IMG/VR virus record: IMGVR_UViG_2684622582_000009
Source: a virus
Lineage: Duplodnaviria; Heunggongvirae; Uroviricota; Caudoviricetes
DNA: 18,533 nt
Reading direction: 5' to 3' (one strand)
The notes under the pieces are model-generated. The model did not search any database and was not told the DNA's origin. It saw only the letters and a program-made list of their open reading frames with translations. Position numbers and translations under genes: made by a program. Positions 1-18,533 of the stretch are shown in pieces. Positions within the stretch are counted from its first letter, which is position 1. Each line of letters opens with the position of its first letter.

Positions 1-825
1 CTATTTCTTCTCTGTAATTTTTACACTGTTTTCCAACTGCTTGATGCTGACCTGCGGGGTCGGCAACTCCTCAGGCATGGTTCCGCCAAGTTCCTGAATG
101 GTTTGCCTCACCTTGCGACCCACGTCAAAGTGTGTGGTATTAGCTTGCTGTTTTGAATTCACGCCATCCCGCTTGAGTTTTTCTTCTGTTTGGGTAGCTC
201 GAAAGAGATTAGCCGCCAGTTCTGTTGAACCCATATGATCCAGGATCTTCTGACTCTTTTTCAGCCCCTTCCGCTGATGGATGGCTTTCTGATCTAATCC
301 ACCATACAGTCCCCGGTAACCATGATTCTGAAATATGGCGAAATCGATAGCTGTCGCTACCCCAGCTTGCTGCGCTGCCTCAACTAATTGTTTGTTATGT
401 TCTTTCAACTCATTTCTCAGAAAAAGACGCTTTTCGTCTTCACGAAGTTGCCTGAAAGCTTCATCGTCAGCCAGCTCCTGCCGTCGGGTCTGGATAGCAA
501 AATAAGTTTGCCCTGCCGCAATAACCGGTTTCGCAGGGTCGCCGTTTTGTACTACCAGGTAACAGGCATAGCGGGAGAGATGAACATCTTCAAGTTCTCG
601 TTGAGCCCCTGAACCTAATACAACCATTTTGGTGGTTTCAACGAAATGGTCAGATGCAGCTTGATTGCTGGCTTCGCACGCTTGAGTCGCGCGGGCCAGT
701 ACCTTTTGAAAATTGCGCCAGTCCCGATAATCCAGTAACGGTGCCAATTCTCTCGCTGACCAAAATTCTTGCCCTTCAGTGCCATAATGCCGTATTTCTT
801 CAAAAGGTTGATGATGTTCGTTCAT
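1..825 (-). CDS. dinD: DNA damage-inducible protein DinD (274 aa; complete, stop codon at 1..3)
   Basis: The 278-aa ORF 1..837 contains an internal Met (MNEHHQPFEEIRHYG...) at 825 preceded by a GGAG Shine-Dalgarno, giving 274 aa, the length I recall for E. coli DinD. The N-terminal sequence matches my memory of DinD. A LexA box lies 46 nt upstream. Identity is from recall, not a search. Confidence 0.85.
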   Translation of the reverse strand: MNEHHQPFEEIRHYGTEGQEFWSARELAPLLDYRDWRNFQKVLARATQACEASNQAASDHFVETTKMVVLGSGAQRELEDVHLSRYACYLVVQNGDPAKPVIAAGQTYFAIQTRRQELADDEAFRQLREDEKRLFLRNELKEHNKQLVEAAQQAGVATAIDFAIFQNHGYRGLYGGLDQKAIHQRKGLKKSQKILDHMGSTELAANLFRATQTEEKLKRDGVNSKQQANTTHFDVGRKVRQTIQELGGTMPEELPTPQVSIKQLENSVKITEKK

Positions 826-870
826 TGCCCACTCCATATGATATCGATTGCAAGGAAAGTAAGTTTACAA

Positions 871-1521: not shown

Positions 1522-1809
1522 TTACTGTCTCTGGCAATCTTTATCGCGATAACGCCTGAAGTACCCTCTCGCTTCCTCATCCATACCAAGAGCCGAATGA
1601 GTCCGCTTAACTGCCTGTCTTAAATCTCCGAATCTGTCTGTAGTTGCTGGTGGGCGTGCCGCCTTACGGATACATTCAGAGCGTCTGTTTGCTGCATGTT
1701 CACGTTCTTTATCGCCATCTGCCAGCATCATGACTTCTGCCCATCGTGCGGCAGCTCTCCGGTATAGCCCTTTTGACTCCAGCTCTTCAGCTTTCCTGTC
1801 CCTTATCAT
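1522..1809 (-). CDS. PerC-family transcriptional regulator-like protein (95 aa)
   Basis: ORF with a GAGAGG Shine-Dalgarno about 5 nt upstream of the ATG at 1809. The N-terminal segment AEELESKGLYRRAAARWAEVM resembles the conserved A-x-x-LE-x-x-G-[LY]-[WY]-RRAA-x-RW signature I recall for PerC/Pch proteins, which are common on E. coli P4-like islands. Confidence 0.55.
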   Translation of the reverse strand: MIRDRKAEELESKGLYRRAAARWAEVMMLADGDKEREHAANRRSECIRKAARPPATTDRFGDLRQAVKRTHSALGMDEEARGYFRRYRDKDCQRQ

Positions 1810-1838
1810 TTCTGCCTCTCAGATTATATAGATAAGCA

Positions 1839-1966
1839 AAAAGGTGTTGGTTCAGTTGGTTCAGTTGGTTCAATTTGTAAAGAGCGTTGTTTTTATTGTG
1901 TTTTTTCTAAAATATTGAACCAACATCAACTCATTTTGAACCAACAAAAAGTGTCCGTGAACTAAC
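1839..1966. repeat. Iteron array A: three tandem GTTGGTTCA (1846..1872), then inverted copies TGAACCAAC at 1916..1924 and 1937..1945, and a degenerate TGAACTAAC at 1958..1966
   Basis: Read directly. Positions 1839..1884 are the exact reverse complement of 9395..9440. Interpretation as an alpha-binding ori/crr-like site is by analogy with P4 type I iterons. Confidence 0.7.
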
Positions 1967-2296
1967 ACTCTGTCAAATAGTCACTACATATATGAACGGT
2001 GAAGACTAAATTCGCCAGCAAATAGCTTATATAGCACCGCTTTATGCCGCAGTTATGCTGGAACAGTAATCATTTCACAGAACCGCCTAACTACTATATG
2101 GCACCTGCTAAAAAGCACATCAGCCTAGTCAGTTGATCGGTGCATGGATATCCTAACAATTCAACTATATAACGTGATCTCCCATGTCGATCTACTGTCA
2201 TGCAATGATTAACAAACACATAGACACATCTGCTTGGCGCATTGATTAATCACTGATCATCCATCAGGATATGCGAACCACCGTCACCAGGTTAGG

Positions 2297-3382
2297 ATGA
2301 TTCTCAAAAGCCACCTGTATTCAATGCCTTTGATGGGTTTCATCCATAGTTATTTTCTCGTGACTGACATGGAGATTTTGATTTCAAGGTGTGCAAAAAC
2401 TATCGCAGAGTACAATGGAGCTCAAATGACTGTGGCACCAAAAGATCAAAGTTTGAAATCTGTAAGGGTGGGCTTTTACACAAGCTCTGAGAATATTCGC
2501 ACTAGTAACAAGGGGTTAACCGCAGAGGCCTTTAAAAATCTGTATGATCGGTGTTCTAAAGACTTCAAGATGACCCACTATGCAGACTTTGGTGAAAGAG
2601 AACTTAAAATTCATTTTCTAGACATCTCACCCGAGGATGGCTCCTACTTCGGATTCATGTCTCGAAGAAGAAAAAGCGCAACACTGGCATATATTACAGA
2701 TAAAGAGTGGGTGGAAGAGAAAATCCCTCTAGCCGGGGCAAAGACTCTTTCAGAACGTACATACTTTATTTATTATCCTCAGACAGACATTCTAGTATTG
2801 TCTTTAAATCATTTAGGTCCACGCCATAGTGACTTAGCCTTCCTTCTTTTCAACTCCAGTGATCGCGGAGTCCCTGTTTCTTTTGAAGCCATTTGGAAAG
2901 AAGAAAGCATCAAAGAACTACTCGAAACTGGATCCAATCTAAGAAGCTGCGAGATTTCTGTGGCCATCCCAAGAAACTTCAATGCCGCACAGTATCAACT
3001 CGATGGAATGTTCGCGAATCAGATGATTGAGATGATCAGAGGCACCAGTTCAAGCCACCTGACTATTTCGTTACGCGGACATTCTCCATTAAAAAGAAAA
3101 GCAAAGGGATGGCTTGAGGATGACGTTAAAAAAAGCCTTAAGGAGATGCTAGAAAAGTTCCCTGGTGGTGATGGTCGTTTAACTTTTGAGAAAGCAAATG
3201 TTGTTGCTCAGGGCGATAAAAAGAAGAAAAGTCTTGTAGACGAAGTTCTTACGGTAAAGAAGATGGTGCCTATCCAAGCAGATGGGTATCCGACCGATAC
3301 TGACGTTAAAAATGCTATGCTACAAGCAAAGAATGACAACCTTAGGTATCTAACCCAGTACTATTTGGTTAGTCAAACGTAA
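2297..3382 (+). CDS. Hypothetical protein (361 aa as drawn), first gene of an AT-rich two-gene operon; candidate defence/abortive-infection component
   Basis: Long uninterrupted ORF in visibly AT-rich DNA. Possible starts are ATG 2297 (AGGT about 5 nt upstream) or ATG 2426 (GGAG 5 nt upstream), so the true N-terminus is uncertain. The stop lies 12 nt before the next gene's start. I recognise no family motif by eye. Confidence 0.6.
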   Translation: MILKSHLYSMPLMGFIHSYFLVTDMEILISRCAKTIAEYNGAQMTVAPKDQSLKSVRVGFYTSSENIRTSNKGLTAEAFKNLYDRCSKDFKMTHYADFGERELKIHFLDISPEDGSYFGFMSRRRKSATLAYITDKEWVEEKIPLAGAKTLSERTYFIYYPQTDILVLSLNHLGPRHSDLAFLLFNSSDRGVPVSFEAIWKEESIKELLETGSNLRSCEISVAIPRNFNAAQYQLDGMFANQMIEMIRGTSSSHLTISLRGHSPLKRKAKGWLEDDVKKSLKEMLEKFPGGDGRLTFEKANVVAQGDKKKKSLVDEVLTVKKMVPIQADGYPTDTDVKNAMLQAKNDNLRYLTQYYLVSQT

Positions 3383-3394
3383 CAGGAATACATT

Positions 3395-3832
3395 ATGAGT
3401 TCTCGGAAATTGTTTGCTGCCAAGTCATTGTTTGCTCTAGCTATGGCTATTGCTGGTGCCCATTTTTTACACGACCTAGATCACAATGCTGTCATTTCGG
3501 CTGCTGGTGCTCTTTCAACTATTTCTGGAGTTCTCTTTGGTTTTGTTTTGGCATCAGTCACCATGCTAAGTAGCTTTGATAGTTCAAAGGGAATTGTAGG
3601 CGCTCTAAAAAGTAACGGAGTACTAAAAGGCATTATTGAGGGGCTTTTTGATACAGGAACTACGCTGATCACAGCCTGCCTATTAGCAATGATCTCGATG
3701 TTTGCCCCTGTTGTCAGCAATCTGCCTCTGGATTATTATGCCCTGCTACTCGCAGGGGCATATTTGATTATATCAATGATAACTTTTTTCTTTAACTGGA
3801 AATCTTTATCTAAAATAATAAGTTACATATGA
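3395..3832 (+). CDS. Small integral membrane protein (145 aa, about four predicted TM helices); candidate membrane effector
   Basis: AGGAA Shine-Dalgarno 7 nt upstream of the ATG. Four hydrophobic segments of about 20 to 25 residues (LFAAKSLFALAMAIAGAHFL; AVISAAGALSTISGVLFGFVLASVTMLSSF; TTLITACLLAMISMFAPVV; YYALLLAGAYLIISMITFFFNW). Starts 12 nt after the 361-aa ORF. Confidence 0.7.
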   Translation: MSSRKLFAAKSLFALAMAIAGAHFLHDLDHNAVISAAGALSTISGVLFGFVLASVTMLSSFDSSKGIVGALKSNGVLKGIIEGLFDTGTTLITACLLAMISMFAPVVSNLPLDYYALLLAGAYLIISMITFFFNWKSLSKIISYI

Positions 3833-4170
3833 TAAATATTTCAAAATGAGTCCCCCTGCTACGGATAGTCCTTGGCTTAAAAAATACCGTCACCGCTGAA
3901 TACCCACACAGTGCCCCCACCCATTTAGTTGGCATAATGTATTCAACTGATTGAGGAATGGCTCCTCTTTTACTACCAAACGGCCATCGCTGGCGCATTC
4001 ATCCGCTGGTAGTGGAACTTTTTAGCCATCAGCGCCTCCCTAAATCAATTCCTTACATCGCTCAAATTCAACAACCATTGTTGTAATCTTGCTGCTATCA
4101 AGTAACGCCTTTGTATTACGCCGACTTTATCTTGCCAGCAACATACGCCATCCGATAATTTCGATGTTAC

Positions 4171-4554
4171 GCGCGCGTACTTGTCGCAAAATATCAGACA
4201 AAAGCCAGATTCAGAACGTCGTGATAACCACCAGCACAACATGAGAGGTCATGTAACGCGATTTATCACACCAGATACATGTGATTGGTGTACCCGCATA
4301 AAACATCGTCATAGCGCGTCCTGTGCGCATATACGCCGATAATCAACACATCACCACCACTCTGACTTATGTAGAGAACAGTTTTATGGTACTCCCCTCC
4401 ATCGTGCGCGTACTGGTCGGACGTAGTTGCAAAATTTTTTGCAACTGATACCCCTCGCGCGCGTACTTGTCTCGAAATTGGTGTTTTGCTGTGGCAGTGA
4501 TATCAGAAAAATCTTCCTGTTTCACATAAAGCGGATATGCGCGTACTGTAACGG
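4171..4554. repeat. Four same-orientation copies of a GCGCGTACT(T/G)GT-like motif (about 4171..4185, 4404..4418, 4456..4472, 4537..4550) plus a perfect palindrome GTTGCAAAATTTTTTGCAAC (4426..4445)
   Basis: Read directly in the intergenic block between the membrane-protein gene and the signal-peptide gene. Function unknown; could be operator sites, arm-type sites or a packaging-related element. Confidence 0.5.
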
Positions 4555-4664
4555 CCCCATCAACTGGGAGCGGATTTGAAATCCCGACCCAAGCTATGTA
4601 CCAAATGCCATGTCTTGGATATATGATGATTGCCATTCTAAACAACGCTAAAGGGAGGGTTGGT

Positions 4665-5063
4665 GTGAATCAATTGAAGCGATTGGTTGTCTCCGGTTTA
4701 TTATTTGCTTCTTTTGGAGCGAACGCTGAATGCTGGATTATTGGTGATCTGAAAGGACAAGAAGCCTCAAGTTTAGATGGGTATAACTATAAGTTATCAT
4801 CTATACCAGATACATTTCATTTGGTAATAAGTAAAGAGAAGGCGGATCTTATCTTGGCAAAAGATGGTATAGGTGGAGGTATTGATTATTACCCGCTATC
4901 TCCGAATGCCATGATGGGAAGAAGCTATCGAGATGGTCAACTGACGCTTGTCACATGGGCAATCTCAAATGACGGAAAAGTGATCCATACACGAACAATT
5001 AGTCGATCTGATATAGGCTCATTTACAGGCTCATTTGTCGGCAATGTTAAAGGCAAGTGTTAA
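4665..5063 (+). CDS. Small secreted/periplasmic protein (132 aa from GTG 4665) with a Sec-type signal peptide
   Basis: A strong Shine-Dalgarno AAGGGAGGG (4652..4659) sits 5 nt before the in-frame GTG at 4665, whereas the upstream ATG at 4596 has none. The N-terminus NQLKR-LVVSGLLFASFG-ANA|E has the n/h/c regions and AXA site of a signal peptide. The mature part has a Cys near each end. Confidence 0.55.
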   Translation: MNQLKRLVVSGLLFASFGANAECWIIGDLKGQEASSLDGYNYKLSSIPDTFHLVISKEKADLILAKDGIGGGIDYYPLSPNAMMGRSYRDGQLTLVTWAISNDGKVIHTRTISRSDIGSFTGSFVGNVKGKC

Positions 5064-5124
5064 TGTTCATAACTATTTGAAAAAATACTAATTACTATTA
5101 TAACCAACCATCCATGGCCATCTG

Positions 5125-7230
5125 TTATTGAGCTTCCTTTTGCGATGCTTGTGCTGCTGTGGTCAGTGATTGTGTGACCGTACTGATCGCTCTGTCATAT
5201 GCTGTGCTACCTTTTGGCGTATTTGCCAGACGTAACAAGGCATTTCGTATAACAGGGCTTTCGTATGCCTTCGCTGCTCCGCCTACGGAACCAGCAGCAG
5301 GAACAACAAACGCAGCCGTTTTTAGCATCCCCGCTAATACTGCTGCGTTTATGATGCCACCACCAACTAACAATCCATAAAGCTGCTGACCATTTAAGTT
5401 TTGAACGTTCGCTTTTGCCGCGTGTCTTGTATCGTTGAGGTATTTAATAACGCCGTCCAGTTCCTTTCCATGTATGCCTTTAAAGAAAGTTGCTGATTGC
5501 TTCCTGTTCCGGTGTAACGCATTAATAAACTTCTCAACACTGATATTTCCAGACGGATCAGTCGCCTTATCTACAGCATTCTGAACTATGGCTGCTCGTG
5601 CGTTTTGCCTACCATTGTCATCCAGAAGCCTGTAAAGCTGAGAACGTTCTGATGGGCTTTGGCTAAAAACAAGTTTTGTTACATCCTCAGGCGTGGCCTT
5701 GCCGCTGGCTATTGCCTTTTGAACGCGCGTTCTTCCCATCATGTCATTGAATTTAGACCATGAGCGATCAACCCTTGCCATATTAATAGCTTCGTCTGCT
5801 CCAAGATTTTTGGCTACGGCTTTTTTCATATCCGCCGTATATGCCTTGTAGATAATATCGCTGGCTTTCTGGAGCGTATCTTTATCAACAGTGTCAGATG
5901 ACGCCATAAATCGCTTTCGAAGATCGGTTCTGTTTTCCCTCGCCAGACGCAGGTCATTTGGTCCGCTGGTGATATCGTCTTTAAATTGCTGCAAGACTTT
6001 TACCGCGGCTCTATCCTGAGATTTGCCCGGGCGGCTTAACACGGCAATCTGATTGTCGATAGCTTTTACCGTGTTTGAGAGATCGACAGGGGTATCCCCC
6101 ATAGCGTCAATTATGCGGTTATATCGCTTTCCTGCTGCCTCAATGAATTTTTGTTGCCCTTTAGTCGCAGATTCATAAAGCTGTTTATCAGAAATGCCAC
6201 CCAGACCATCGCTAAATGTTCTGACTAAATTTTCTCGTGCTTGTTGTTGATTCAGCCGATTCTTACCGGTTCCAAAAAAAGGAACTCTTTCGCCTAATGT
6301 CTGAGCCTGACTCTGCATAAAGGTTTTATCTTTCAGCATGTCACTGGTCATTAACGGCAGATTTCTTTCCGATGCAAAGTCGACAGCAGCCTTTGCTTCA
6401 GGCGATATATCACCACGAACAGCCCTCGAAACCGCACTCGCTGTATTTTCCAGCCCCTTACCAATACCACCAATGCCAGCAGAAATTACCGTTTGTAACG
6501 GATCAATATCTTCTCCACCAGCGAGGCTGGTGGCTCCCTGTAGTGCTAAATCTGTAGCTGCTGATTTCCCTATGGCCCCCAGCACCGTTCCGGCCCTGCC
6601 CGCTGGTGTAAACGCCAGCGCATTAGCCAGAAACGATGCCACGTCTTGCGGCGATAAACCCGGCTTGTTCAGAGCATAATCACCGGATGGCAGGGAAACG
6701 ATAGTGTTACCCTTCTCATCCTGCCTTAATTTCGCTCCCATGCTCTGAAGAATCTTTTCCTGAGATGCGTCAGAGCCGAAAAGTTGAGACCATCGAGCTT
6801 TTAGAGCATCCATGCTGAGTGAGGTTAACTCTGGGGCAAGGTCGACATTTTGCAGTCTCTCCATCTCTGGAGTCATTCGGCTTTCGCCTGTTATAGCATC
6901 GCGCATCGCAGCCCCAAGACTGGCTCCCTGTTCTGCTGAACGCTCAAGCCCCTCTCTTTGCTGAGTAGCTAACTTTGCATACCCTGACGCAAGAGAATTA
7001 TCAGATGATGTATGTTGAATATTTTGAGTTGCTGATTGGGATCGGTCTATTTCATTCGTTGATGGTAGTGGATAGGCAGCATAAAAAGCCTGCTTAGCCT
7101 GCTCTACACTTTCTCCGGCTTGCGGGGCAACGACTTCATTGAAGTATTGCTCCTGAGCCTGCGCTTTTTGTTCTGGTGCTAACGCCTGATACTGTGGAGA
7201 GGCGATAACATCTTTCCATGCTTTAGCCAT
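5125..7230 (-). CDS. Large hypothetical protein (701 aa), A/Q-rich with a C-terminal glycine-zipper hydrophobic hairpin
   Basis: ORF with a GGGGTGA Shine-Dalgarno. Its ATG overlaps the upstream gene's stop (TAATG at 7228..7232), indicating translational coupling. The C-terminal segment LYGLLVGGGIINAAVLAGMLKTAAFVVPAAGSVGGAAKAY is about 40 hydrophobic, Gly-rich residues. No Walker A or other catalytic motif is recognisable. Confidence 0.75.
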   Translation of the reverse strand: MAKAWKDVIASPQYQALAPEQKAQAQEQYFNEVVAPQAGESVEQAKQAFYAAYPLPSTNEIDRSQSATQNIQHTSSDNSLASGYAKLATQQREGLERSAEQGASLGAAMRDAITGESRMTPEMERLQNVDLAPELTSLSMDALKARWSQLFGSDASQEKILQSMGAKLRQDEKGNTIVSLPSGDYALNKPGLSPQDVASFLANALAFTPAGRAGTVLGAIGKSAATDLALQGATSLAGGEDIDPLQTVISAGIGGIGKGLENTASAVSRAVRGDISPEAKAAVDFASERNLPLMTSDMLKDKTFMQSQAQTLGERVPFFGTGKNRLNQQQARENLVRTFSDGLGGISDKQLYESATKGQQKFIEAAGKRYNRIIDAMGDTPVDLSNTVKAIDNQIAVLSRPGKSQDRAAVKVLQQFKDDITSGPNDLRLARENRTDLRKRFMASSDTVDKDTLQKASDIIYKAYTADMKKAVAKNLGADEAINMARVDRSWSKFNDMMGRTRVQKAIASGKATPEDVTKLVFSQSPSERSQLYRLLDDNGRQNARAAIVQNAVDKATDPSGNISVEKFINALHRNRKQSATFFKGIHGKELDGVIKYLNDTRHAAKANVQNLNGQQLYGLLVGGGIINAAVLAGMLKTAAFVVPAAGSVGGAAKAYESPVIRNALLRLANTPKGSTAYDRAISTVTQSLTTAAQASQKEAQ

Positions 7231-8696
7231 TAATCACCCCATAGTGAAGAAAAGTTACTGCTGGCTGCTGGCTGTGATACCTGCTCAGATTGCGGCAATG
7301 TCTGCGACGAAGAAGCAGTTCCTCTGTCAACTGCTGAAATAACCCGCAAAGCATCATAAGTTCGACCAGAAGCAGCTTTCAGCGAATTGAACTGGTTTTC
7401 CATCTTCCGGCGCTTGGTATCAATGGTTTTTGTGGAGTCGCCAGGCTGAGGGAAATACATTTGATAATATTTTGACATTTCAGCAGGTGCGATAGCTGCC
7501 CCTGTTTCCTGACGGAGTATTGCCATTATTGCGTCATTAGCATTAACAACGTATTGCTGCTCTGCTGGGCTGAGCGTTAAGTTAGCCAGCGTCCCATTAC
7601 CCAAAGCATTATTAATGATCGCCACTCGCTGTGGGCTAAGCTGGTCTTTCAGTGTATCTATTGAATCAAGAGCATCCCTAACCCTGTATGCAAATCCAGC
7701 AGCTTTTTTAGCCCCTTCTGGCGACTTTTCCATGATCTTTTGGGCTGTTGGCAAAGCTATTGGACGAAACCCATCTCCAGATATTGGCTGGTTTAGTTTT
7801 CCCTGCTCTTCACTTCCGTCTGTGTAGTATTTTGTGACAGTGCCATCATCGTTTTCTCTAACACTCATTAATTTTTTGGCGTTTGTATTAATTCCAGCCG
7901 CTGCCGCAAATGCCGCCGCCCCCTCTGGATCCGCCTTTAACATTTGCGCGTACTGATTGTAATTCTGCATTGCGGCTGTTGGTGCATATGCTGACGTTAA
8001 CGCATTTGCTCGGCTAATATCCTGCCCTCTCGCCTGAAGTGCTTCTCCGGCCTGATTGCTGCGGATTGTCTCTGCCAACTTGCCACGCTCAATATCCCGA
8101 CCTTCCATTTGATCTTTGATATCGAAATACTTCTCATGACCGAGAGAAAACAGCGCCAGATTACCTGCGAAATGCTGGAAGCCCTGCGGGTCATTAACCT
8201 GCATTTCAGCAATAGTTTCTGGAGGGATACCTAAACGACGCATCTCCTGCTCATTATCCATCATGAACCTGCCAAATGCGCCCTGACCAAGCGATGAGGC
8301 TACCTGTGCTTTGAGCGCCAGATTGCCATAATCATCCCTTTGAGCATCATCGACATAACTCATCCCTTTACGGACTTCCTCAAACTCTTCTGGGAATGCT
8401 GTAATAAGATTACGCATCTGCTCCCTGTCACCGGACGCATAAGCATCTGCATAACCTTTCTGGAATGCTGCTTTACGCTCCTGCTGTTGCTGCTGCTTAT
8501 AAATATCAGCAACTCCAGCCAGACCACGAAGACCTGTCAGAGCAACGTTATTTGCACCTGAGCGAGCCAGTTCATTGTTTTCGCGGATCAGACCAAGCGT
8601 TGCGTTAATGTCGCTTGCTTTTGGCGCATTCTCATTTTGCGTACCGATGCCAGCCAGAAAACCACCAGAATTAATACCCTGTTGCCACGTAGCCAT
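7230..8696 (-). CDS. Large hypothetical protein (488 aa from ATG 8696; 492 aa if GTG 8708 is used), A/Q-rich, low complexity
   Basis: Long ORF translationally coupled to the 701-aa gene. The track start at 8708 is a GTG overlapping the upstream small gene; the ATG at 8696 (MATWQQG...) lies 4 nt after that gene's stop. Contains a QQQQQ run and many Ala/Gln. Confidence 0.75.
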   Translation of the reverse strand: MATWQQGINSGGFLAGIGTQNENAPKASDINATLGLIRENNELARSGANNVALTGLRGLAGVADIYKQQQQQERKAAFQKGYADAYASGDREQMRNLITAFPEEFEEVRKGMSYVDDAQRDDYGNLALKAQVASSLGQGAFGRFMMDNEQEMRRLGIPPETIAEMQVNDPQGFQHFAGNLALFSLGHEKYFDIKDQMEGRDIERGKLAETIRSNQAGEALQARGQDISRANALTSAYAPTAAMQNYNQYAQMLKADPEGAAAFAAAAGINTNAKKLMSVRENDDGTVTKYYTDGSEEQGKLNQPISGDGFRPIALPTAQKIMEKSPEGAKKAAGFAYRVRDALDSIDTLKDQLSPQRVAIINNALGNGTLANLTLSPAEQQYVVNANDAIMAILRQETGAAIAPAEMSKYYQMYFPQPGDSTKTIDTKRRKMENQFNSLKAASGRTYDALRVISAVDRGTASSSQTLPQSEQVSQPAASSNFSSLWGD

Positions 8697-8700
8697 AAAT

Positions 8701-8874
8701 TTACCCACGTCCAGTTAAAGTGTAAGCCAGCGCCTTATCCATTAATCCCCGAGCAATTTCGTGGATCGTTGGCGCAACTCCTACCTCTGATTTTTTACGC
8801 TGCTCCTCCTGAATTTTCTTTATCGCTTCCATTTGCTTCTCACTTATCAATACTGGCTTTACTGAAATAGCCAT
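8701..8874 (-). CDS. Small protein (57 aa), possible ribbon-helix-helix DNA-binding protein; first gene of the LexA-box operon
   Basis: Not in the ORF track because it is under 60 aa. The ATG at 8874 follows a strong Shine-Dalgarno AAGGGGG. Translation: MAISVKPVLISEKQMEAIKKIQEEQRKKSEVGVAPTIHEIARGLMDKALAYTLTGRG. A beta-strand-like VKPVLIS followed by two helical segments is compatible with an RHH fold, judged by eye only. Confidence 0.5.
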   Translation of the reverse strand: MAISVKPVLISEKQMEAIKKIQEEQRKKSEVGVAPTIHEIARGLMDKALAYTLTGRG

Positions 8875-8889
8875 AACGCCCCCTTAGAA

Positions 8890-8913
8890 CTGTATAAAAC
8901 AACAGTTATTATA
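8890..8913 (-). promoter_or_regulatory. Candidate SOS promoter: LexA box CTGTATAAAACAACAG (8890..8905) directly downstream of a perfect TATAAT -10 (minus strand, 8908..8913)
   Basis: Read directly: CTG-N10-CAG with an AT-rich spacer, flanked as AACTGT...ACAGTT like the dinD box. It sits 16 to 31 nt upstream of the 57-aa gene's ATG, a position typical of LexA operators overlapping the -10/+1 region. The -35 element is weak. Confidence 0.6.
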
Positions 8914-9196
8914 GTTTCACAAATCGCAATATTCATCATCGTAATTGCAAAATATGAAACAAATAGCACAAAAAAATGCCACCGCTCAGTAGCTGGTGGC
9001 ATCGTTCTGTGTGTCAGGTTTTGACAGGTTTTTTATGGACTCTAAAAACTATATTTATGGTGTCGCATTACTCTTCACGGCAGGCGCTTTTCAGTTCTGC
9101 CCTTGCTTCTGGCTCCATTGGTAATTTGATTCGCGATCAGCTATGCGGATGGTTTGCTGAACAGGCATAACAACTTCTCAGAGGCTGTTTTTTGAA

Positions 9197-9272
9197 CTAC
9201 GAAAATTTCGTAGTGCTCACTTTCAAAAACGTCACGCCCTTGTACACAGGATTTTACGAAAGTCTCGTAAAA
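9197..9272. promoter_or_regulatory. Two related palindromes, CTACGAAAATTTCGTAG (9197..9213) and TTTTACGAAAGTCTCGTAAAA (9252..9272); operator-like sites
   Basis: Read directly; both share a TACGAAA half-site and lie about 55 bp apart between the iteron array and the LexA-box promoter. They are AU-rich and lack a following T-tract, so they are unlikely to be terminators. Confidence 0.3.
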
Positions 9273-9322
9273 CACTCTCTGATGCCAGCCAGGTGTTGTG
9301 CGCATCAATTCAGTCACATTGT

Positions 9323-9440
9323 GTTGGTTCAAAATACCGTGTTGTTGGTTCAGTGTTGGTTCAATAAAAAGAATAAAATCCTTATAAAACAATACTCTTT
9401 ACAAATTGAACCAACTGAACCAACTGAACCAACACCTTTT
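9323..9440. repeat. Iteron array B: GTTGGTTCA at 9323..9331, 9344..9352 and 9355..9363, then three tandem TGAACCAAC (9407..9433); mirror image of array A
   Basis: Read directly. Positions 9395..9440 are the exact reverse complement of 1839..1884. The array lies immediately downstream of the primase-helicase gene, consistent with an origin-type alpha-binding site (inference). Confidence 0.7.
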
Positions 9441-9458: not shown

Positions 9459-12215
9459 TCATTCTTCAGATGAGTTATAATCTCCTGGCTGGTAATTGAG
9501 TACATAAACGTTTATTTGTCGTCCCTGAATACGTGGTGATTTTCTTTGGTATCCACGACCGCTGTTTGGTGGGGTTAGCATCCCGGCTTTTTTCAACACT
9601 TCAGCAAACTGTTTTGCGTTGAAACCACATGCGATCTCCTTTTCAAATGTGGCCGGGAATGTGTAGAAAATCATTGGGCTTTCGTCATGTTCTCCACGCT
9701 GACGGTATCCGGCTAAATCTTTGATGGGCAAATCTGCCGGGCTGTATGGAAATGGAGCAAAACGGCTAAGCCCATAGGCATTAAGAAATGCCTCCGTTTG
9801 TTCAATAATCTGCTGATGCTCTTTGTTACCTGTGCCGAACTCGCGCAACCATGCGTTATAGCTGTGCTGTATCGCATCACGGCATGTCTGAGCATCCCAG
9901 CCTGTTACAACCTCGCCTAACAGCAATGCGGCCTCCAGAATGGCAAATCGCGCGGCTACACGGTGAACCTGCTCACCATAATCGGATGGGATCAGACTTC
10001 TCCATCTGCTTTCGCAGTCACGAACAGTTTTAATTGCCTGTTGCTGGTGGTCTGCCAGCCATTTAATCCACTCACGCCCGGCTGCGCCGTGGTGATGCTG
10101 GTAAGCGTCTTTCAGTGCGTCTGCGTGCTGTTTTCCGTTCTGGTAATCGTGAAAGCGTACTGCTTTACTCAACGGAATATTCAGCAGTCGCACCAGTTGC
10201 CCGGCTTTGGTTTTTCGCCCGGAAGTAGCGATAAATGTTTCTAAATCCATTTCTCCGGTGCTGATTGCCACTGTACGCCAGCGTTTTAGATCCCGGTTTC
10301 CACCATCTTTAGCGCCTTGCAGTTTCCCTACACCGTTAAATAACGCATAGGCAGACTGTGAAACACTGACAGGATCAGCGCCCTGACCAACTTCATCAAG
10401 CGGCATTAGTCCGTCATTGTGGGCGGCAGCTTCATTTGCCAGCCCCAGCGCGGTTCCGTACCATGTCAGCCGCAGTAAATCAGGGTTGCCGTATAAGCAG
10501 CTCGCCACGTTTGCCGTGGTGGTCTTACCTGCGCTCGACTGCTCATAGAAATGAATGCCGAACCCGTCAGCGCCCACCAGCCCAATCAATGGCGCTGCCA
10601 GTGCTGCGCCGATCCCGGTCATCATTGAATAGTTACCAAAGGCCAGACGCGCCACGTTATCACGCCAGCTTTTCGCGCTCCCTGAGACGGTATATCCGGC
10701 TGCGGCTGAGCTTCTCCCGCTGAACAGCACAGGATTTTCAGGTGTTCCGATGATTTCCCCATCAGGCATGATGTACGCTCCGCATTGCCAGCCAGTGGCA
10801 TGAGCAACACGCCACAATTCACGAGAGCCACTGCGTTGTAGCCAGTCTGCCAGTATTGCTCTGAGGCTGCTTTTGGTCGTGACATTTACCCCACCAGCTT
10901 TAAGTGTGCGCCATCCTTCACGTTCACCAATATCAGCCAGTGGAATGGCAGCGGTTGTCGGCGTTTCAGAACCAAACGACAGCCAGCGAAGAATGAGATA
11001 CTGGTCTTTATCGTCTCTGCCAGTACCGATAACGCTTAACGGAGAACATAACCAGCTTTCGTTATTGATGATTTCTCCACTCTGGCTGTCAGCTCTCGGA
11101 GATACCCAATAAATACCATCCTCGCGGCTTTCTATTCTTGGTTTCAGTGGGTCGGTATCCATAACCTTAAAATCGCTTCCCTCAATGGTCTGTGGCTCCT
11201 GTTTCACGCCATTACCCTGTGGTTGGTACATTGACTTATTGAACGCTTCTGTGGCGCATTTAATGCCGTGTTTTTGGTGGTAATCATTCCAGTCTGCTTT
11301 GTGATCTGTCGGGGGTAATGCCACCCATCCAGAAACAGATAAAGCTGCCTTTTCTGCTGCTATTCTCCCCGTGTTTTGTCTTACTTCGCTGTGGTCGTTA
11401 TCCGCAGCAATGATGATTTGTGCTGAAGGAAATTTATCCCGCAGTACCTGGGCGACATATAACAGGTTCCCGGCATCAATCGCCGCCACTGTCAGCGCCT
11501 CTGGACGAATTAAATGGGCAGATAATGCCGTTGCCAGCCCTTCTGCGATTAAGATGCTCTGTGTTGTTTCTGGTGCGTTTATGGCGTGATATGCCCCTCG
11601 CTTTGCTGAACCTGTCAGGAGTCTTTTTTCACCATGTGAGGTAATAGTCTGTGCTGCTGTTACTGCGCCGGATTTATCCACCAGCGCCAGCAACAGAGAT
11701 CCATCGGGCAACACGGGGAATGTAAAATCACCTACCCCTTTCGCAACCAGATAATCAGATTTGCCGTTTACAGCCTTTCTGCGCATGTCATCAAACTGAC
11801 GGGAAAACGTATCCCGTCTTTGTTGTTCGTCCTTCTCTGCCCTTTTCAGGCGCTCCTGTTCGCGTCGCTGGCGCTCGGTTTCCAGTTGTTCCCGTTTCTG
11901 GCTGGTGGCTTCTGGTGTTTCCGTTGTCCGGTAATCAATACCCAGAACATCAGCGGCAAGAAGCGCCGCCTCTGTTGTGTCGCAGTTATTTACGCGTTTA
12001 ATTAAATCCAGCCCATCACCAGCGCCGCACTGATTACAGATGAAGCTACCGCGCCCGTTGTCGTCGAACCGGAATCGATCTTTGCCCCCACATGCAGGGC
12101 AGGGAGCATGACGGCGCGGAGAGTCAGGGACATTTATGTTCAGACAGCACAGCACATGAGGCCAGTTGTTTTCAGACGCACTGATAACCTGACGGATAAG
12201 ATCAATGTTTCGCAT
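9459..12215 (-). CDS. P4 alpha-like primase-helicase (918 aa)
   Basis: N-terminal Cys4 zinc ribbon (CPACGG...CNQCG), a TOPRIM-like acidic segment (IIIAADNDH) and a Walker-A-like SSAGKTT in the C-terminal half. GGGGG Shine-Dalgarno upstream of the ATG at 12215. This architecture matches P4 alpha / D5-type primase-helicases as I recall them. Confidence 0.85.
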   Translation of the reverse strand: MRNIDLIRQVISASENNWPHVLCCLNINVPDSPRRHAPCPACGGKDRFRFDDNGRGSFICNQCGAGDGLDLIKRVNNCDTTEAALLAADVLGIDYRTTETPEATSQKREQLETERQRREQERLKRAEKDEQQRRDTFSRQFDDMRRKAVNGKSDYLVAKGVGDFTFPVLPDGSLLLALVDKSGAVTAAQTITSHGEKRLLTGSAKRGAYHAINAPETTQSILIAEGLATALSAHLIRPEALTVAAIDAGNLLYVAQVLRDKFPSAQIIIAADNDHSEVRQNTGRIAAEKAALSVSGWVALPPTDHKADWNDYHQKHGIKCATEAFNKSMYQPQGNGVKQEPQTIEGSDFKVMDTDPLKPRIESREDGIYWVSPRADSQSGEIINNESWLCSPLSVIGTGRDDKDQYLILRWLSFGSETPTTAAIPLADIGEREGWRTLKAGGVNVTTKSSLRAILADWLQRSGSRELWRVAHATGWQCGAYIMPDGEIIGTPENPVLFSGRSSAAAGYTVSGSAKSWRDNVARLAFGNYSMMTGIGAALAAPLIGLVGADGFGIHFYEQSSAGKTTTANVASCLYGNPDLLRLTWYGTALGLANEAAAHNDGLMPLDEVGQGADPVSVSQSAYALFNGVGKLQGAKDGGNRDLKRWRTVAISTGEMDLETFIATSGRKTKAGQLVRLLNIPLSKAVRFHDYQNGKQHADALKDAYQHHHGAAGREWIKWLADHQQQAIKTVRDCESRWRSLIPSDYGEQVHRVAARFAILEAALLLGEVVTGWDAQTCRDAIQHSYNAWLREFGTGNKEHQQIIEQTEAFLNAYGLSRFAPFPYSPADLPIKDLAGYRQRGEHDESPMIFYTFPATFEKEIACGFNAKQFAEVLKKAGMLTPPNSGRGYQRKSPRIQGRQINVYVLNYQPGDYNSSEE

Positions 12216-13706: not shown

Positions 13707-14555
13707 GTGCCACCTCCATGCGGATACGACCAGCAAAAAAGCAGACGTGATCGCGCACCAGAGAAAGGCGAGCATCGCGTTCAGACTCGGCAGCAATATG
13801 ATGAATTTTGGCGGTAATTGTCGGGCAATCGCGGCGAACTGCGGCGATAATCCAGATAAATTGCGGTTTTTGGGTAGGGGTAGTAGCCAGCATGTGGCAG
13901 CCTCCTTCAGATAGCAGGTTACGCTACCACCGGAAACGCCAATTTCGCTGGTGGTAGCCCAGACAGGGTTGGCGTAACCGGCTCTGAAGGATACCGGCGC
14001 TTCCGAAGAAGCCCCCGCCTGAGCCACCATTGATTGACAAGGGCGCTGGATTATACACCAACGCCCAAAAAATGGGTGAGTCAGACCTACGACATAAAAA
14101 AAGACGCTCGGCGCGTCATATGTCGCCTTCAGAATTTTCAGGACGCCAATCCCGGCACCCGTTTTATGAGGTGCCTTATAACCATAAACCGTGTTGCCGC
14201 ATAACGGCAAGCTCTTTTTTATGGACTCCGAAAACTCACTATTGGAAGCACCAGATGCACAATACATCGCGCTTATTTCGTTAACGTCACGCGCGTGGAC
14301 GAAGGTTTTTGTGGAGTCACTACACGAGCAGAACAGGTCATCTACGACCAGAAATTCTCTGGCGCAGCCGCTGACCTTCTCAACGCTAACATCATCGACC
14401 GTAATTTCTGACATAGTTAAGGCATCCGCTCCTACCACCAGCAAATGATAAACTTTGCTTGTATCTGCTGTATTAATGCCTGACTTTGCCGCCATATTGC
14501 TGTATTTTGGCGACATGCCAGCCAGTGAAAATATCTTCTTCTGGACGGGTATCAT
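13488..14555 (-). CDS. 355-aa ORF of uncertain reality (possibly a genuine N-terminal gene plus read-through, or a region with non-coding function)
   Basis: The start at 14555 has a GGAGG Shine-Dalgarno and ATGA coupling to the upstream 59-aa gene, so translation probably initiates here. The central 150 or so residues are rich in W, C and P and look like a non-coding frame, and several opposite-strand ORFs overlap. Confidence 0.3.
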
Positions 14556-15569: not shown

Positions 15570-16001
15570 TTAGGCGGCGTTAAACGCGTCCGGGTAGAGT
15601 TTCAGAATGTCGGCAATTTCCTGCTGAGAAAGTCCGTTGTGATCATTTATGTTCGCAAGATGGTTAACATGAGTGATCACTTTCAGAACATCACCACGGC
15701 AGGAGAAACGGTAGCGAAGGTGTGTTCCGATACCATCAGGATTCTTTTCGTCGATACGCTCCAGAGTGATTCCAAGCTGGCGTTCTAACTCTGTTGCATA
15801 GTTACGACCAGAAGACAGACGGCAGTAGCGAAGAATGTCATTTTCTGTCCATCCCTCTATACCAGTACGCAGCATATAGACTCGGGCACGATGCTTTTTC
15901 GGTGTGCGCTTTGGTGCTTGAAGGGATTTTGTAAGGGGCGTAATATCAGATACGCGAATATCTGAATTAGCCGCCTGTAATGGGCGGTTTTTCTTTTCCA
16001 T
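15570..16001 (-). CDS. Hypothetical protein (143 aa), coupled to alpA
   Basis: ATGA overlap with the alpA stop at 15999..16003. Basic N-terminus; no family recognised. Confidence 0.6.
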   Translation of the reverse strand: MEKKNRPLQAANSDIRVSDITPLTKSLQAPKRTPKKHRARVYMLRTGIEGWTENDILRYCRLSSGRNYATELERQLGITLERIDEKNPDGIGTHLRYRFSCRGDVLKVITHVNHLANINDHNGLSQQEIADILKLYPDAFNAA

Positions 16002-16204
16002 CAGGCCACCTTCCCGCGGCGTTCTGCCAGCCAGTTGTGAATCTCAACCGCATCAAACGCAGTTATTTTTTCTCCCAGCTTTACCGGACGTGGTAGTGAA
16101 CCGTTTCTTACTTTACGGTCGATGGTGGATACACTAACGCCCAGCAATTCAGCCAGGCGAAAGCGTCTGATATAGCCTTTTGTAGGGATAGTGTCGATGT
16201 TCAT
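16001..16204 (-). CDS. alpA: AlpA-family (phage Vis-like) transcriptional regulator (67 aa)
   Basis: The segment RLAELLGVSVSTIDRKVRNGSLPRPVKLGEKITAFDAVEIHNWL fits the AlpA helix-turn-helix pattern (L-x-E-x-x-G-x-S-x-STI-x-R ... P-x-P-V-K-L-G ... W) as I recall it. Its position just downstream of the integrase region is typical for P4-like and PICI elements. Confidence 0.8.
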   Translation of the reverse strand: MNIDTIPTKGYIRRFRLAELLGVSVSTIDRKVRNGSLPRPVKLGEKITAFDAVEIHNWLAERRGKVA

Positions 16205-16270
16205 GATTCCCGTAACCTCTTAGCGATAGTTGTTGCTTCGTTACGAGAAATCTAGCTGTATAGATATACA

Positions 16271-16299
16271 ATGAAAAGGTACTGTAATTTTGCAGTACC
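16271..16299 (-). terminator. Candidate intrinsic terminator after the 316-aa gene (palindrome GGTACTGTAATTTTGCAGTACC followed by a T-run on the minus strand)
   Basis: A near-perfect 7-bp-arm inverted repeat at 16278..16299 lies 12 nt downstream of the 316-aa stop. On the transcribed (minus) strand it is followed by TTTTCATT. It could alternatively be an operator. Confidence 0.35.
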
Positions 16300-16310
16300 T
16301 CTATAGTAAG

Positions 16311-17261
16311 TTAACTATCCACTTTGCCATTTGCCGCAGATCGTAGATGTTTAAGAATTACATCTTCATTAGTTATCATAAGTGGTGGAACTTCGTCTAA
16401 ATGACGAACAAGACAGTCACGCCACTTCTCAGGGCTTATTTCTTTCCTTTCTCCCCTGCATTCATTTGGATACTTACTAAGTATATAAATTGCAGATTTT
16501 AATAGTTTCTCCCTATTGACTGCGTACCGTTCGGCACGTTTATTAACTTTTAGCGTATTTATATCATTGGATAACTTGTTTGCGGATGGTTTGTGCATGG
16601 GTCTGTCATAAATATATTTTCCTCCATTTATAAGAAGATTGTATTCATAGTCAGTTATATACATTTTGTTTCGGCTTATTTCATACCAGCCGTCAATATA
16701 AAAAGCTCCGATTTCATAATTATTCGATTTGCTAAACTCGTCACATCTCGGAGGCATCAGTTCGCATACAGAGATCTCCCAATCATCCCATTCTGATAGC
16801 TCCCGCTCATCGTTATCTATGAACGCAGGCGGAATTGCTAATAGACCGCTCCATCTTTCGATATCTCTTTCATCCTTCCCAACATTGTATCGCTCTATAA
16901 CTGAGAAATGTTCTGATTTGTATGAAAACCTCATAAAATACATATAGTTATCGCTATTTTTATAATCAAGTGATGATAAGCCATATGATTCGAGATTATC
17001 TGCCTTATTGCTCAGATCAAGGAGATAATTCTCATGTGCTGCTTTTGTATCTATATGAAAAATACTATCTGTTTCAACTTTAAGTAATTCTGGCTCGGCA
17101 TCTTCATTTTTTGGGTAATGGTAAAACAATTCAATAGGTGGAATTTTTATACATATTTCTAAAACCCCAATTGCTGCATAGTGTATTAAATCGGATACTT
17201 CACATCCGGCCAGTTTGGCTGCTTTATCCAAAGAATAATATTTATGCGCAGGTAATTTCAT
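16311..17261 (-). CDS. Hypothetical protein (316 aa), AT-rich, with a possible N-terminal HTH; sits between int and alpA
   Basis: Its ATG at 17261 lies 18 nt after the integrase stop, with a GAGAGGAAAG Shine-Dalgarno that spans the int TGA. The N-terminus YSLDKAAKLAGCEVSDLIHYAAIG looks like a helix-turn-helix. The DNA is visibly more AT-rich than its neighbours (not computed). Confidence 0.65.
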   Translation of the reverse strand: MKLPAHKYYSLDKAAKLAGCEVSDLIHYAAIGVLEICIKIPPIELFYHYPKNEDAEPELLKVETDSIFHIDTKAAHENYLLDLSNKADNLESYGLSSLDYKNSDNYMYFMRFSYKSEHFSVIERYNVGKDERDIERWSGLLAIPPAFIDNDERELSEWDDWEISVCELMPPRCDEFSKSNNYEIGAFYIDGWYEISRNKMYITDYEYNLLINGGKYIYDRPMHKPSANKLSNDINTLKVNKRAERYAVNREKLLKSAIYILSKYPNECRGERKEISPEKWRDCLVRHLDEVPPLMITNEDVILKHLRSAANGKVDS

Positions 17262-17279: not shown

Positions 17280-18533
17280 TCATGCTCTGATTGGCGTTAC
17301 GTTGTAGTCTTTTCCGCTTTCCAGTGCCACCAGCAGATCTGCCCACTGTGCCAGTGCTGCTTTACGCTCATCAAAATACTGATGACGGTTATAAATCCCC
17401 TCTACGCCCTTAATGCGATGATTGAGGCATCGTTCCGCCACGACAGGATCAACACCCAATGCTGCTAAATGAGTACGTGCGGTGCGTCGGAAGTCGTGAA
17501 TCGTGAAATTAGGCACATCCGGCATTTCGGCGCGAACCTTAGCCAGTGCTACGGGTAAAGTGCTTTCCTGAATATGTGGGATCATTCTGTTTTGCATCTT
17601 CCTGGCCGGAAGCACCCATGCGCTATTACATGAAAAGGTGTGTAGCTCTCTCAACCATTCAGCGGCTGGGGAAGGTAGAGGTATATCAATAGGGTCTCCG
17701 TTTTTGCTGCGTTCTTCCGGCAAATGCCATACCGCACCATCTAAATCAAACTCTTCCCATCGTGCGGCGCATAACTCCATCTTACGAACGCATAGTGCCA
17801 GCAATAGTTTAAATGTCAGTTCGTTTTGGCGGCTGAATCCTTTTGCGGTGCGCATAGCCTCGAATAGCCTGATAAGCTCATCGCGAGTTAGCCAACGGTC
17901 GCGGGAAACCTCTTTACCACCAGCATCAGATACTTCAAACGCTGAACAAGGGTTTATCTCCAGAGCGTGGCGTTTTATCCCATAGTCAAAGATACGGCGT
18001 GTCCAGCGTAATACATCTGTTGCTATCGTTGGTGCTCCTCGGTCAACGATACCTTTCAACATGTCGTCAATGTGGCGTGGCTTAACGTCCTCTACCTTCA
18101 TATGCCCAATGCAGGGGTTAATATCCTTATCAATTCTCCGGCGAAGGATATCGGGATGTTTCCATCTCGGAAGTATCTGGCGCTCGAAGTATTCGGAGGC
18201 CAGATCTGAAACACGCATGGCGTTTTTCTCAGCCTCCATTTTTGCCAGTGCTTCAGCTTTTCGTTCCTGTTTCTCTGCTGCTACGTCATAGCCAAGAGCA
18301 ACTCTGGCTGACAGCTCTTTTGCTGTTTCTCTGGCTTTTGATAGTGACAGTTCGGAGTAAGAGCCTATAACCATAGCCCGCTGCTTTCCTGCGAGCTTAT
18401 AGCGGAATCGCCAGAACGGGACTGTGTAGTTTTTGGGGTAGCAAATATAAAGGCCGTTGCCGTCTGCCTTGCCATCAAATCTGTCTCCCGCCTTTATCCA
18501 TGCGCGGATCTGCATATCTGTGAGTTTTGGCAT
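17280..18533 (-). CDS. int: P4-type tyrosine integrase (417 aa; complete, start codon is the last three bases of the window)
   Basis: The C-terminal catalytic region has HDFRRT (His-x-x-Arg) and IYNRHQY (candidate Tyr nucleophile), characteristic of tyrosine recombinases. The N-terminus (GLYICYPKNYTVPFWRFRYKLAGKQRAMVIGSY) resembles the P4-type integrase arm-binding domain, from recall. Confidence 0.9.
   Translation of the reverse strand: MPKLTDMQIRAWIKAGDRFDGKADGNGLYICYPKNYTVPFWRFRYKLAGKQRAMVIGSYSELSLSKARETAKELSARVALGYDVAAEKQERKAEALAKMEAEKNAMRVSDLASEYFERQILPRWKHPDILRRRIDKDINPCIGHMKVEDVKPRHIDDMLKGIVDRGAPTIATDVLRWTRRIFDYGIKRHALEINPCSAFEVSDAGGKEVSRDRWLTRDELIRLFEAMRTAKGFSRQNELTFKLLLALCVRKMELCAARWEEFDLDGAVWHLPEERSKNGDPIDIPLPSPAAEWLRELHTFSCNSAWVLPARKMQNRMIPHIQESTLPVALAKVRAEMPDVPNFTIHDFRRTARTHLAALGVDPVVAERCLNHRIKGVEGIYNRHQYFDERKAALAQWADLLVALESGKDYNVTPIRA

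Follow-up and report, generated by a model that had tools for sequence, protein, structure and literature searches.

The 18,533-nt stretch of DNA analyzed here (IMG/VR virus record IMGVR_UViG_2684622582_000009), called the window throughout, is a Gram-negative phage-inducible chromosomal island (PICI), that is, a phage satellite of Escherichia coli integrated at tRNA-Thr. Two mirrored arrays of iterons bracket a block of cargo in this island. Judged from their sequence, the arrays are probably the mirror halves of the island's replication origin, which would be read by its own initiator and would enclose a slot for variable cargo. What appears to be new is the arrangement, with a known type of PICI origin probably present as two mirror halves split around cargo. 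PICIs and satellites like them rank among the main vehicles of anti-phage and virulence genes, and the place of the cargo within them is a subject of current research.

Two mirrored iteron arrays flank the cargo

An earlier reading of the window, made without database searches (the sequence-only reading), had reported a perfect 46-bp inverted repeat. Direct inspection confirmed this: over 46 nt, the sequence at 1839-1884 is the exact reverse complement of that at 9395-9440. Chance alone would yield about 3e-20 exact inverted pairs of 46 nt in a sequence of 18.5 kb. With a repeat finder, the exact pair grew to 55 nt at 96% (1839-1893 / 9386-9440), and a second, weaker pair of arms was detected at 79% (1911-1953 / 9315-9357). 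The arms and arrays are laid out as follows.

1839..1893, no strand: left (distal) arm of the long inverted repeat, exact over 1839-1884
9386..9440, no strand: right (primase-proximal) arm of the long inverted repeat, exact over 9395-9440
9323..9440, minus strand: putative proximal origin half, from the iteron map, its layout and its site 3' of the primase gene matching PICI origins (PMC6092414); read in the primase direction, triple 9407-9433 (TGAACCAAC at 9407, 9416 and 9425), spacer 9364-9406, inverted iterons at 9355, 9344 and 9323 (GTTGGTTCA)
1839..1966, plus strand: putative distal origin half, the mirror image of the proximal half; triple 1846-1872, outward to perC (GTTGGTTCA at 1846, 1855 and 1864), spacer 1873-1915, inverted iterons at 1916 and 1937 (TGAACCAAC) and, innermost, at 1958 (TGAACTAAC, one mismatch)
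9285..9292, no strand: conserved central motif CTGGCTGG (CCAGCCAG on the plus strand), from comparison with compact origins

All 11 exact copies of GTTGGTTCA or TGAACCAAC in the window fall into two clusters, 1846-1966 and 9323-9433, while 0.14 copies of a 9-mer would be expected by chance on both strands. In both arrays, the tandem triples, with a 9-bp period, lie outward and the spaced opposite units lie toward the cargo. Three plus three units had been described for each array; this holds for the right array, whereas the left one has two exact inverted units and a degenerate one. The AT-rich spacers measure 43 nt in each array, with an A+T content of 79% on the left and 84% on the right.

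A PICI origin consists of two oppositely oriented sets of iterons on either side of an AT-rich region, directly 3' of pri/rep, and a pri-ori fragment of the PICI EcCICFT073 drives plasmid replication (PMC6092414). Each array of the window, taken alone, has this published form of oppositely oriented iterons around an AT-rich region. Moreover, the proximal array, with its 3+3 iterons around the AT-rich spacer, is separated by 18 bp from the stop codon of the primase-helicase gene, and one array thus abuts the 3' end of that gene, as had been claimed.

Compact and split forms of the arrays among relatives

We then compared the window with 77 loci carrying homologues of its primase-helicase, fetched from species representatives, and mapped iterons in 59 of them, mostly from Enterobacterales. 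About 30 of the 59 have a compact form of ~260 bp directly after the gene: three iterons in one orientation, an AT-rich stretch, five iterons in the opposite orientation, one in the first orientation and three more in the opposite one. In 14 of the 59, as in the window, the form is split: three iterons, an AT-rich stretch and three opposite iterons are followed 0.16-9 kb downstream by a mirrored second module. Some 15 further loci showed the proximal module only, within at most 10 kb of downstream DNA (less in some). Split loci come from Lonsdalea, Rosenbergiella, Chimaeribacter, Pantoea, Serratia, Leclercia, Cedecea, Citrobacter, Limnobaculum and others. In its split state, the mirrored pair is spread over at least 10 genera, with three iteron sequences that differ from one another.

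The compact form is well seen in E. coli SW07096 (locus L003), which is free of cargo. A triple, an AT spacer and spaced inverted units directly follow the primase gene; a second, opposite tandem triple stands ~200 bp further on, followed by ssb and perC, and the iteron is GTTGTCTCA in both origin parts. The outer flank of the window's distal half is homologous to the distal end of such compact origins. The motif CTGGCTGG lies between the halves in compact origins, and in the window it is found with the proximal half, bordering the cargo.

At least eight iteron cores were found: GTTGGTTC, GTTGTCTC, GTCGGTTC, ACGGGTTA, GTCGGGTA, GTGGGTTA, CTTATCCC and GGTCGGTT. Each locus has one shared core, the two halves being always alike. 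For example, CTTATCCC is present in both halves of a split locus 7.8 kb apart (L065), and GGTCGGTT in both halves of another that are 0.4 kb apart with a single small open reading frame (ORF) between them (L044).

Several side observations were made on these loci. The motif CTGGCTGG and a 34-nt GC-rich spacer are conserved non-iteron motifs, as seen in the compact origins L003, L006, L007, L011, L042 and L047. In many E. coli genomes, such as PK8276 (L002) and O111:NM (L004), only the distal array and perC are present, the primase and the proximal array having been lost, and about 150 records match the array alone. Three compact-type iteron clusters were found within 6 kb in Yersinia pekkanenii (L036), two of them upstream of the end of an over-long primase match, and L064 has seven tandem iterons, not three. 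These two oddities may stem from duplication or assembly problems.

Iterons covary with the C terminus of the initiator

The candidate initiator is encoded directly beside the proximal half.

9459..12215, minus strand: primase-helicase/initiator (Pri-Rep), 918 aa; Zn ribbon, Toprim and DUF927 helicase by Pfam, followed by a C-terminal domain
9486..9701, minus strand: putative iteron-specificity determinant, Pri-Rep residues 839-910, from the columns separating iteron classes

When searched against PDB sequences with phmmer, the helicase part of Pri-Rep (query residues 402-813) matched 8TCH at 3.7e-11. This entry is deposited as "Pathogenicity island protein," and we take it to be a Rep protein of a Staphylococcus aureus pathogenicity island (SaPI). 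A weaker match was obtained to the SCCmec helicase 5DGK (0.024). Residues 7-361 share 33% identity with P4 alpha (3e-41), a likeness confined to the N-terminal primase domain. The initiator is thus a mosaic of a P4-alpha-like primase domain and a DUF927 helicase closest to 8TCH; the loci behind this comparison are the window (9459-12215, minus strand), L086 (10242-11996) and L087 (4636-6969).

To relate protein to iteron, 40-odd full-length homologues were aligned, with 28 proteins in the GTTGGTTC class and 6 in the GTTGTCTC class. Six columns were disjoint between the two classes, and all six fall in residues 839-910, within the last 80 residues. Four of them lie at residues 891-896, which read RKS..I/V in GTTGGTTC elements and GRV..E in GTTGTCTC elements; the segment YQRKSPRI differs by iteron class. 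At matched helicase identity, pairs sharing an iteron also had a higher C-terminal identity, an effect not seen with the N-terminal domain, although the significance is overstated because loci of related species are not independent. Rep proteins of SaPIs act as initiators and helicases that load themselves and recognize iterons through a C-terminal winged-helix domain (PMC9371898). The pattern in Pri-Rep is as would be expected if its C-terminal domain read the iterons, as in SaPI Rep. The core changes in both arrays together and with the C-terminal residues, which bears out the proposed tie between the iteron arrays and the adjacent primase-helicase. Since the iterons are shared by both arrays and track these residues, it is very probable that the element's own initiator binds both of them. 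The pairs of iteron and C-terminal residues give direct predictions for engineering initiator specificity.

The distal half has the form of a complete origin module

We assessed the distal half in 13 split loci (the window and 12 others). In all 13, it is fully mirrored and has an AT-rich spacer of 43-45 nt, 2-3 inverted inner iterons and the motif AATTTGTAAAGA beside the triple; AATTTGTAAAGA is kept beside the triple in both halves across genera. The distal spacer of compact origins is of the AT type in 14 cases and of a GC-rich 34-nt type in 16 (Fisher test versus split loci, p=6e-4, a value overstated because loci of related species are not independent). The distal module is thus complete whenever it is far from its partner. 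It therefore looks self-sufficient, which favours a second origin over an operator.

Several observations weigh against reading the arrays as two origin halves around a cargo slot. Half of the compact origins have a GC-rich spacer (..CCAG..TGGCGCGGCCTG.. in the 16 with the 34-nt type) and one inverted iteron only in their distal part, which means that not every element must use its distal triple as a melting origin. The genes perC or ssb lie inside the bracket in some split loci and outside it in others. Degraded elements that have lost the primase still have the distal array and perC, which fits a promoter role no less than simple decay. Finally, a C-terminal profile search of PDB sequences returned no relative of the presumed iteron-reading domain, and a single-sequence AlphaFold (AF2) model of it had a pLDDT of 39, too low for use.

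The strongest competing explanation is that the proximal array alone is the origin and that the distal array is mainly an operator, where initiator bound to the outward triple would control the promoter of perC (ssb-perC in relatives); we consider this unlikely. It would also allow for a divergent promoter into the cargo, or for a copy-number or handcuffing locus like P1 incA. The gene concerned is the following.

1522..1809, minus strand: perC, start codon 37 bp outside the distal tandem triple

Between the start codon and the distal triple, within these 37 bp, there is a TATAAT sequence (1823-1828, minus strand), and all iteron classes show a motif, CTTTTGCTTATATATA, immediately after the distal triple. 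The 16 compact origins with a GC-rich distal spacer, without a melting region there, and the decayed elements that keep the distal array together with perC are in line with an operator as well, as is the inward transcription of the genes beside the distal half, away from it. However, a scan for consensus sigma-70 promoters found no site at either array, so that the operator idea draws on position and a lone TATAAT. Moreover, all 13 split distal halves are complete origin modules by the SaPI/PICI definition, beyond what an operator needs, and the AT spacers are interchangeable in nature. Operator and origin roles of the distal half may also coexist.

A model for the proposed split origin

Under the reading of the arrays as two origin halves, we infer binding, firing and looping as the steps taking place at the arrays. 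Each half would comprise an outer iteron triple, a 43-bp AT stretch as the presumed melting site and inner opposite iterons, and the C-terminal domain of the initiator would read the iterons of both halves. After excision, initiator hexamers would assemble at each half. Then either each half would fire as an origin of its own, or contacts between initiators would pair the halves and loop out the cargo. Since the distal triple stands at the -35 position of the perC leader, it would probably also couple downstream transcription to occupancy by the initiator. The conserved halves could furthermore anchor homology for the exchange of cassettes between elements of the same specificity. The split state could have arisen by cargo entering an ancestral compact origin, or by a half-origin being relocated or duplicated. 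A stronger version, in which the two modules form one mirror origin with a dedicated central cargo slot, appears rather doubtful to us: here, the modules would pair and loop, both would be needed or both would fire, the bracketed genes would be amplified first and most on induction, and cassettes would swap between islands of the same specificity.

If the cargo slot does lie inside the origin, it could be found from sequence alone via the mirrored initiator iterons, which would make it easy to search genomes for accessory and defence genes. Cargo tied to the replicon and framed by two homology anchors would also explain rapid cassette exchange. The natural series of half spacings, from 0 to 9 kb, would offer a system for studying communication over distance between self-loading helicase-initiators, a question standing since P4 ori/crr and R6K.

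Origin of the 46-bp identity, and tests of conversion and inversion

The perfect 46-bp match had been taken to imply recent gene conversion or strong selection. Most of the 46 bp consists of the iteron triple (27 nt) and of flanking motifs, including AATTTGTAAAGA. Since these motifs are conserved in both halves across genera, selection explains most of the identity. Exact matches between the arms span 9-38 nt in other split loci and 12-31 nt in compact loci. Conversion does occur on occasion: in one E. coli lineage, comprising EC476 (L084 14000-14160), 19AR1321 and 19AR0253, the AT spacer of the proximal array is of the distal type, although the inner iterons there are still its own. These are 3 of ~365 genomes with a full proximal array, and the exact match of 78 nt is the signature of a short conversion tract between the arms.

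Inversion or exchange of the cargo had also been suggested. We ran the proposed junction check on genome sequences, and a synthetic inverted-cargo junction had a one-place match in none of 579 E. coli genomes. The native junction was covered to at least 80% in 9 genomes only, with more at 71%, which makes this inversion test a valid one of moderate power; rare inversion events may occur. A conserved 145-aa gene beside the distal half, described below, likewise shows no change of strand among the 15 loci that have it. The arms do interact, as the conversion patch between them shows.

It is very improbable, in our estimation, that the pair is a non-functional by-product of rearrangement (for example, recombination between two PICIs, or an inverted duplication arising as cargo was captured), its identity kept up by occasional conversion. 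The conversion patch of the three genomes and the shifts of perC and ssb relative to the halves between loci, which do show rearrangement, would agree with such a history. Against it, the mirrored pair recurs across the genera and three iteron sequences given above with its modules intact around unrelated DNA, and a decaying duplicate would stop covarying with the initiator.

Variable cargo lies between the halves

The cargo of the window comprises the following parts.

1967..9322, no strand: cargo between the putative origin halves (Pfam, locus comparison, PHROGs)
~1947-4124: variable cassette beside the distal half, with ORFs at 2297-3382 (plus strand) and 3395-3832 (plus strand)
4596-5063, plus strand: ORF in the cargo
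5125-7230 and 7230-8708, minus strand: P22-type DNA-ejection genes
8726-9315: conserved stretch of the cargo on the primase side

PADLOC gave no defence match for the cargo ORFs, and PHROGs named only the ejection proteins in the window. When homologous elements were aligned, as the sequence-only reading had proposed, the DNA between the conserved arrays proved variable among the 59 loci, both in length (0.16-9 kb) and in content. The spacing between the halves is graded: 161 bp, 403 bp (one ORF), 0.95 kb, 2.1 kb and up to 9 kb. The content differs from locus to locus; tape-measure proteins, Dit/baseplate-hub/spike genes and SLT-domain proteins were found elsewhere, and accessory cargo there includes Fic, Tlde1, a P4 beta-protein homologue and an Abi protein. 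Among E. coli elements with near-identical primase and perC, homology stops at 1946, at the inner edge of the distal half, and the next 2.2 kb are exchanged for other genes. In EC476 (L084), for instance, an Abi-family gene stands in place of the window's cassette at 1947-4124.

It is barely credible that the arrays represent terminal inverted repeats belonging to another mobile element nested within the island, the case named beforehand as refuting the origin reading. Inverted repeats around 7.5 kb would suit it by geometry only; no transposase, recombinase or invertase was found in the cargo, a target-site duplication is absent, with AGATAAGCAA and CTACGCACAT as the outer flanks, the repeats are made of the island's own iterons, both stand adjacent and free of cargo in compact relatives, and their sequence follows the primase, not the cargo. 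Both this nested-transposon explanation and a tandem-island explanation were rejected.

Isolated phage DNA-delivery genes, without other virion genes, recur as cargo, in the window (5125-8708, minus strand) and in L015, L022, L023, L029, L037, L040, L057 and L062. P22-type ejection proteins serve as cargo in the window and in other E. coli. The published idea of "late zone" capture (PMC10111431) covers cargo made of delivery genes only loosely. We also noted a conserved 145-aa protein (L022 19446-19883, minus strand) with homologues in 14 other loci. Its gene lies beside the distal half on the strand opposite to the primase gene in all 15 loci that have it, and in split loci it stands just inside the distal half, beside a doubled GTAAGACA motif. 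The N terminus of this protein looked ribbon-helix-helix-like to our eye. Like perC and ssb, the gene varies between loci in its position relative to the halves.

Comparison with known replication systems

The closest likeness is with published PICI and SaPI origins (PMC6092414). As in the window, these lie directly 3' of pri/rep, have opposite sets of iterons around an AT region, and use iterons that are element specific. The helicase part of the window's initiator is also related in sequence to 8TCH, a SaPI Rep by our reading of that entry. In contrast, a published PICI origin is a single unit of iterons, AT region and iterons, whereas the window has two mirror units 7.5 kb apart around accessory genes. 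EcCICFT073 has an unrelated primase (D5_N/DUF5906/Pox_D5), yet the same two-ended layout, with CTGTCTACC as its iterons, and it shares the GC-rich spacer motif GCCGCGCCATTACTGG with several compact origins related to that of the window. Origin architecture is thus conserved across non-homologous initiators.

In PICIs, the region downstream of the primase gene is variable and carries anti-phage genes and captured late genes of the helper (PMC11364771, PMC10111431). This accessory region, or late zone, is like the cargo of the window in variability and place. However, these papers define it by gene content and make no mention of bracketing origin halves, and the word "ori" is absent from PMC11364771. 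Our literature search found no paper describing origin halves that bracket a PICI accessory region; searching with the iteron string returned unrelated papers only, and the 18-nt tandem string returned no paper.

The sequence-only reading had suggested that the arrays are a diverged ori/crr pair of the P4 kind. In P4, alpha brings ori and crr together by looping, and crr is functional over a range of distances and in both orientations. Like the window, P4 has two iteron-bearing cis elements kilobases apart and one primase-helicase, and its crr resembles the window's proximal array in lying directly 3' of the gene and in being built of tandem iterons, a spacer and inverted iterons. The N-terminal primase domains are homologous, and both elements have C4/isrK immunity RNAs. 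However, the helicase and DNA-binding parts of P4 alpha (D5_N, DUF5906, Pox_D5) are not homologous to the DUF927 helicase of the window, PDB sequence searches with the window protein gave no match to the origin-binding domain of P4 alpha, and the P4 type 1 iteron, TGTTCACC, has no copy on either strand of the window. According to its annotated record, P4 crr consists of two 120-bp direct repeats of type-1 units, whereas the arrays of the window are inverted copies; P4 ori is built differently from crr, 4.7 kb away, whereas the arrays of the window share one module. The alpha operon lies between crr and ori in P4, and cargo lies between the arrays in the window. The cargo hotspot of P4 lies between psu and int (PMC9122126). 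The analogy may thus hold for the mode of action, in that a single initiator would serve two iteron sites far apart, but not for family membership: the system of the window is probably a PICI origin in a split state and is not a member of the P4 ori/crr family.

Separate iteron sets served by one initiator, with looping or handcuffing, are also known from R6K gamma/alpha/beta and P1 incC/incA, and R6K pi pairs its distant origins by initiator contacts. In contrast to the window, these systems have unrelated initiators (pi, RepA), lack mirrored complete modules and have no cargo slot in between.

Identity and other features of the island

The backbone of the window is that of a PICI. Its minus-strand genes encode a tyrosine integrase, an AlpA-type regulator, AntA, Ash, the primase-helicase and PerC, and every gene from alpA through the primase gene is on the minus strand. 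Further features are the following.

17280-18533, minus strand: tyrosine integrase, at one end of the element
16001-16204, minus strand: AlpA-family helix-turn-helix protein

Gram-negative PICIs have a tyrosine integrase at one end, a specific attachment site that prophages do not use, an alpA regulator with transcription running largely in one direction away from int, and induction, replication and packaging that depend on a helper phage (PMC6092414). They are organized in integration, Bro, replication and late zones (PMC6092414, PMC10111431), and the gene order of the window matches the zones given in PMC10111431. The element adjoins tRNA-Thr next to proA in E. coli ABU 83972, rl0044, APEC E18005 and EC476, and many E. 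coli chromosomes carry near-identical copies beside tRNA-Thr and proA. A megablast of the primase region against a phage collection gave no match; the element is chromosomal.

Additional observations concern the regions outside the arrays. Within the Ash-family gene, Rfam detected a C4 antisense RNA (13947-14034, minus strand, 79.9 bits) and isrK (14097-14174, minus strand, 67.8 bits), that is, a P4-like RNA immunity module within a PICI backbone. Beyond perC, a protein with a Bro-N domain (1-837, minus strand) matched the PADLOC candidate defence family PDC-S13 (6e-125). Lastly, the stretch at 16200-17261 has a low GC content, 34-37% compared with ~48% elsewhere, and holds, between int and alpA, an ORF of 316 aa for which neither Pfam nor PHROGs gave a match; this stretch is possibly another accessory slot, located at the end with the integrase.

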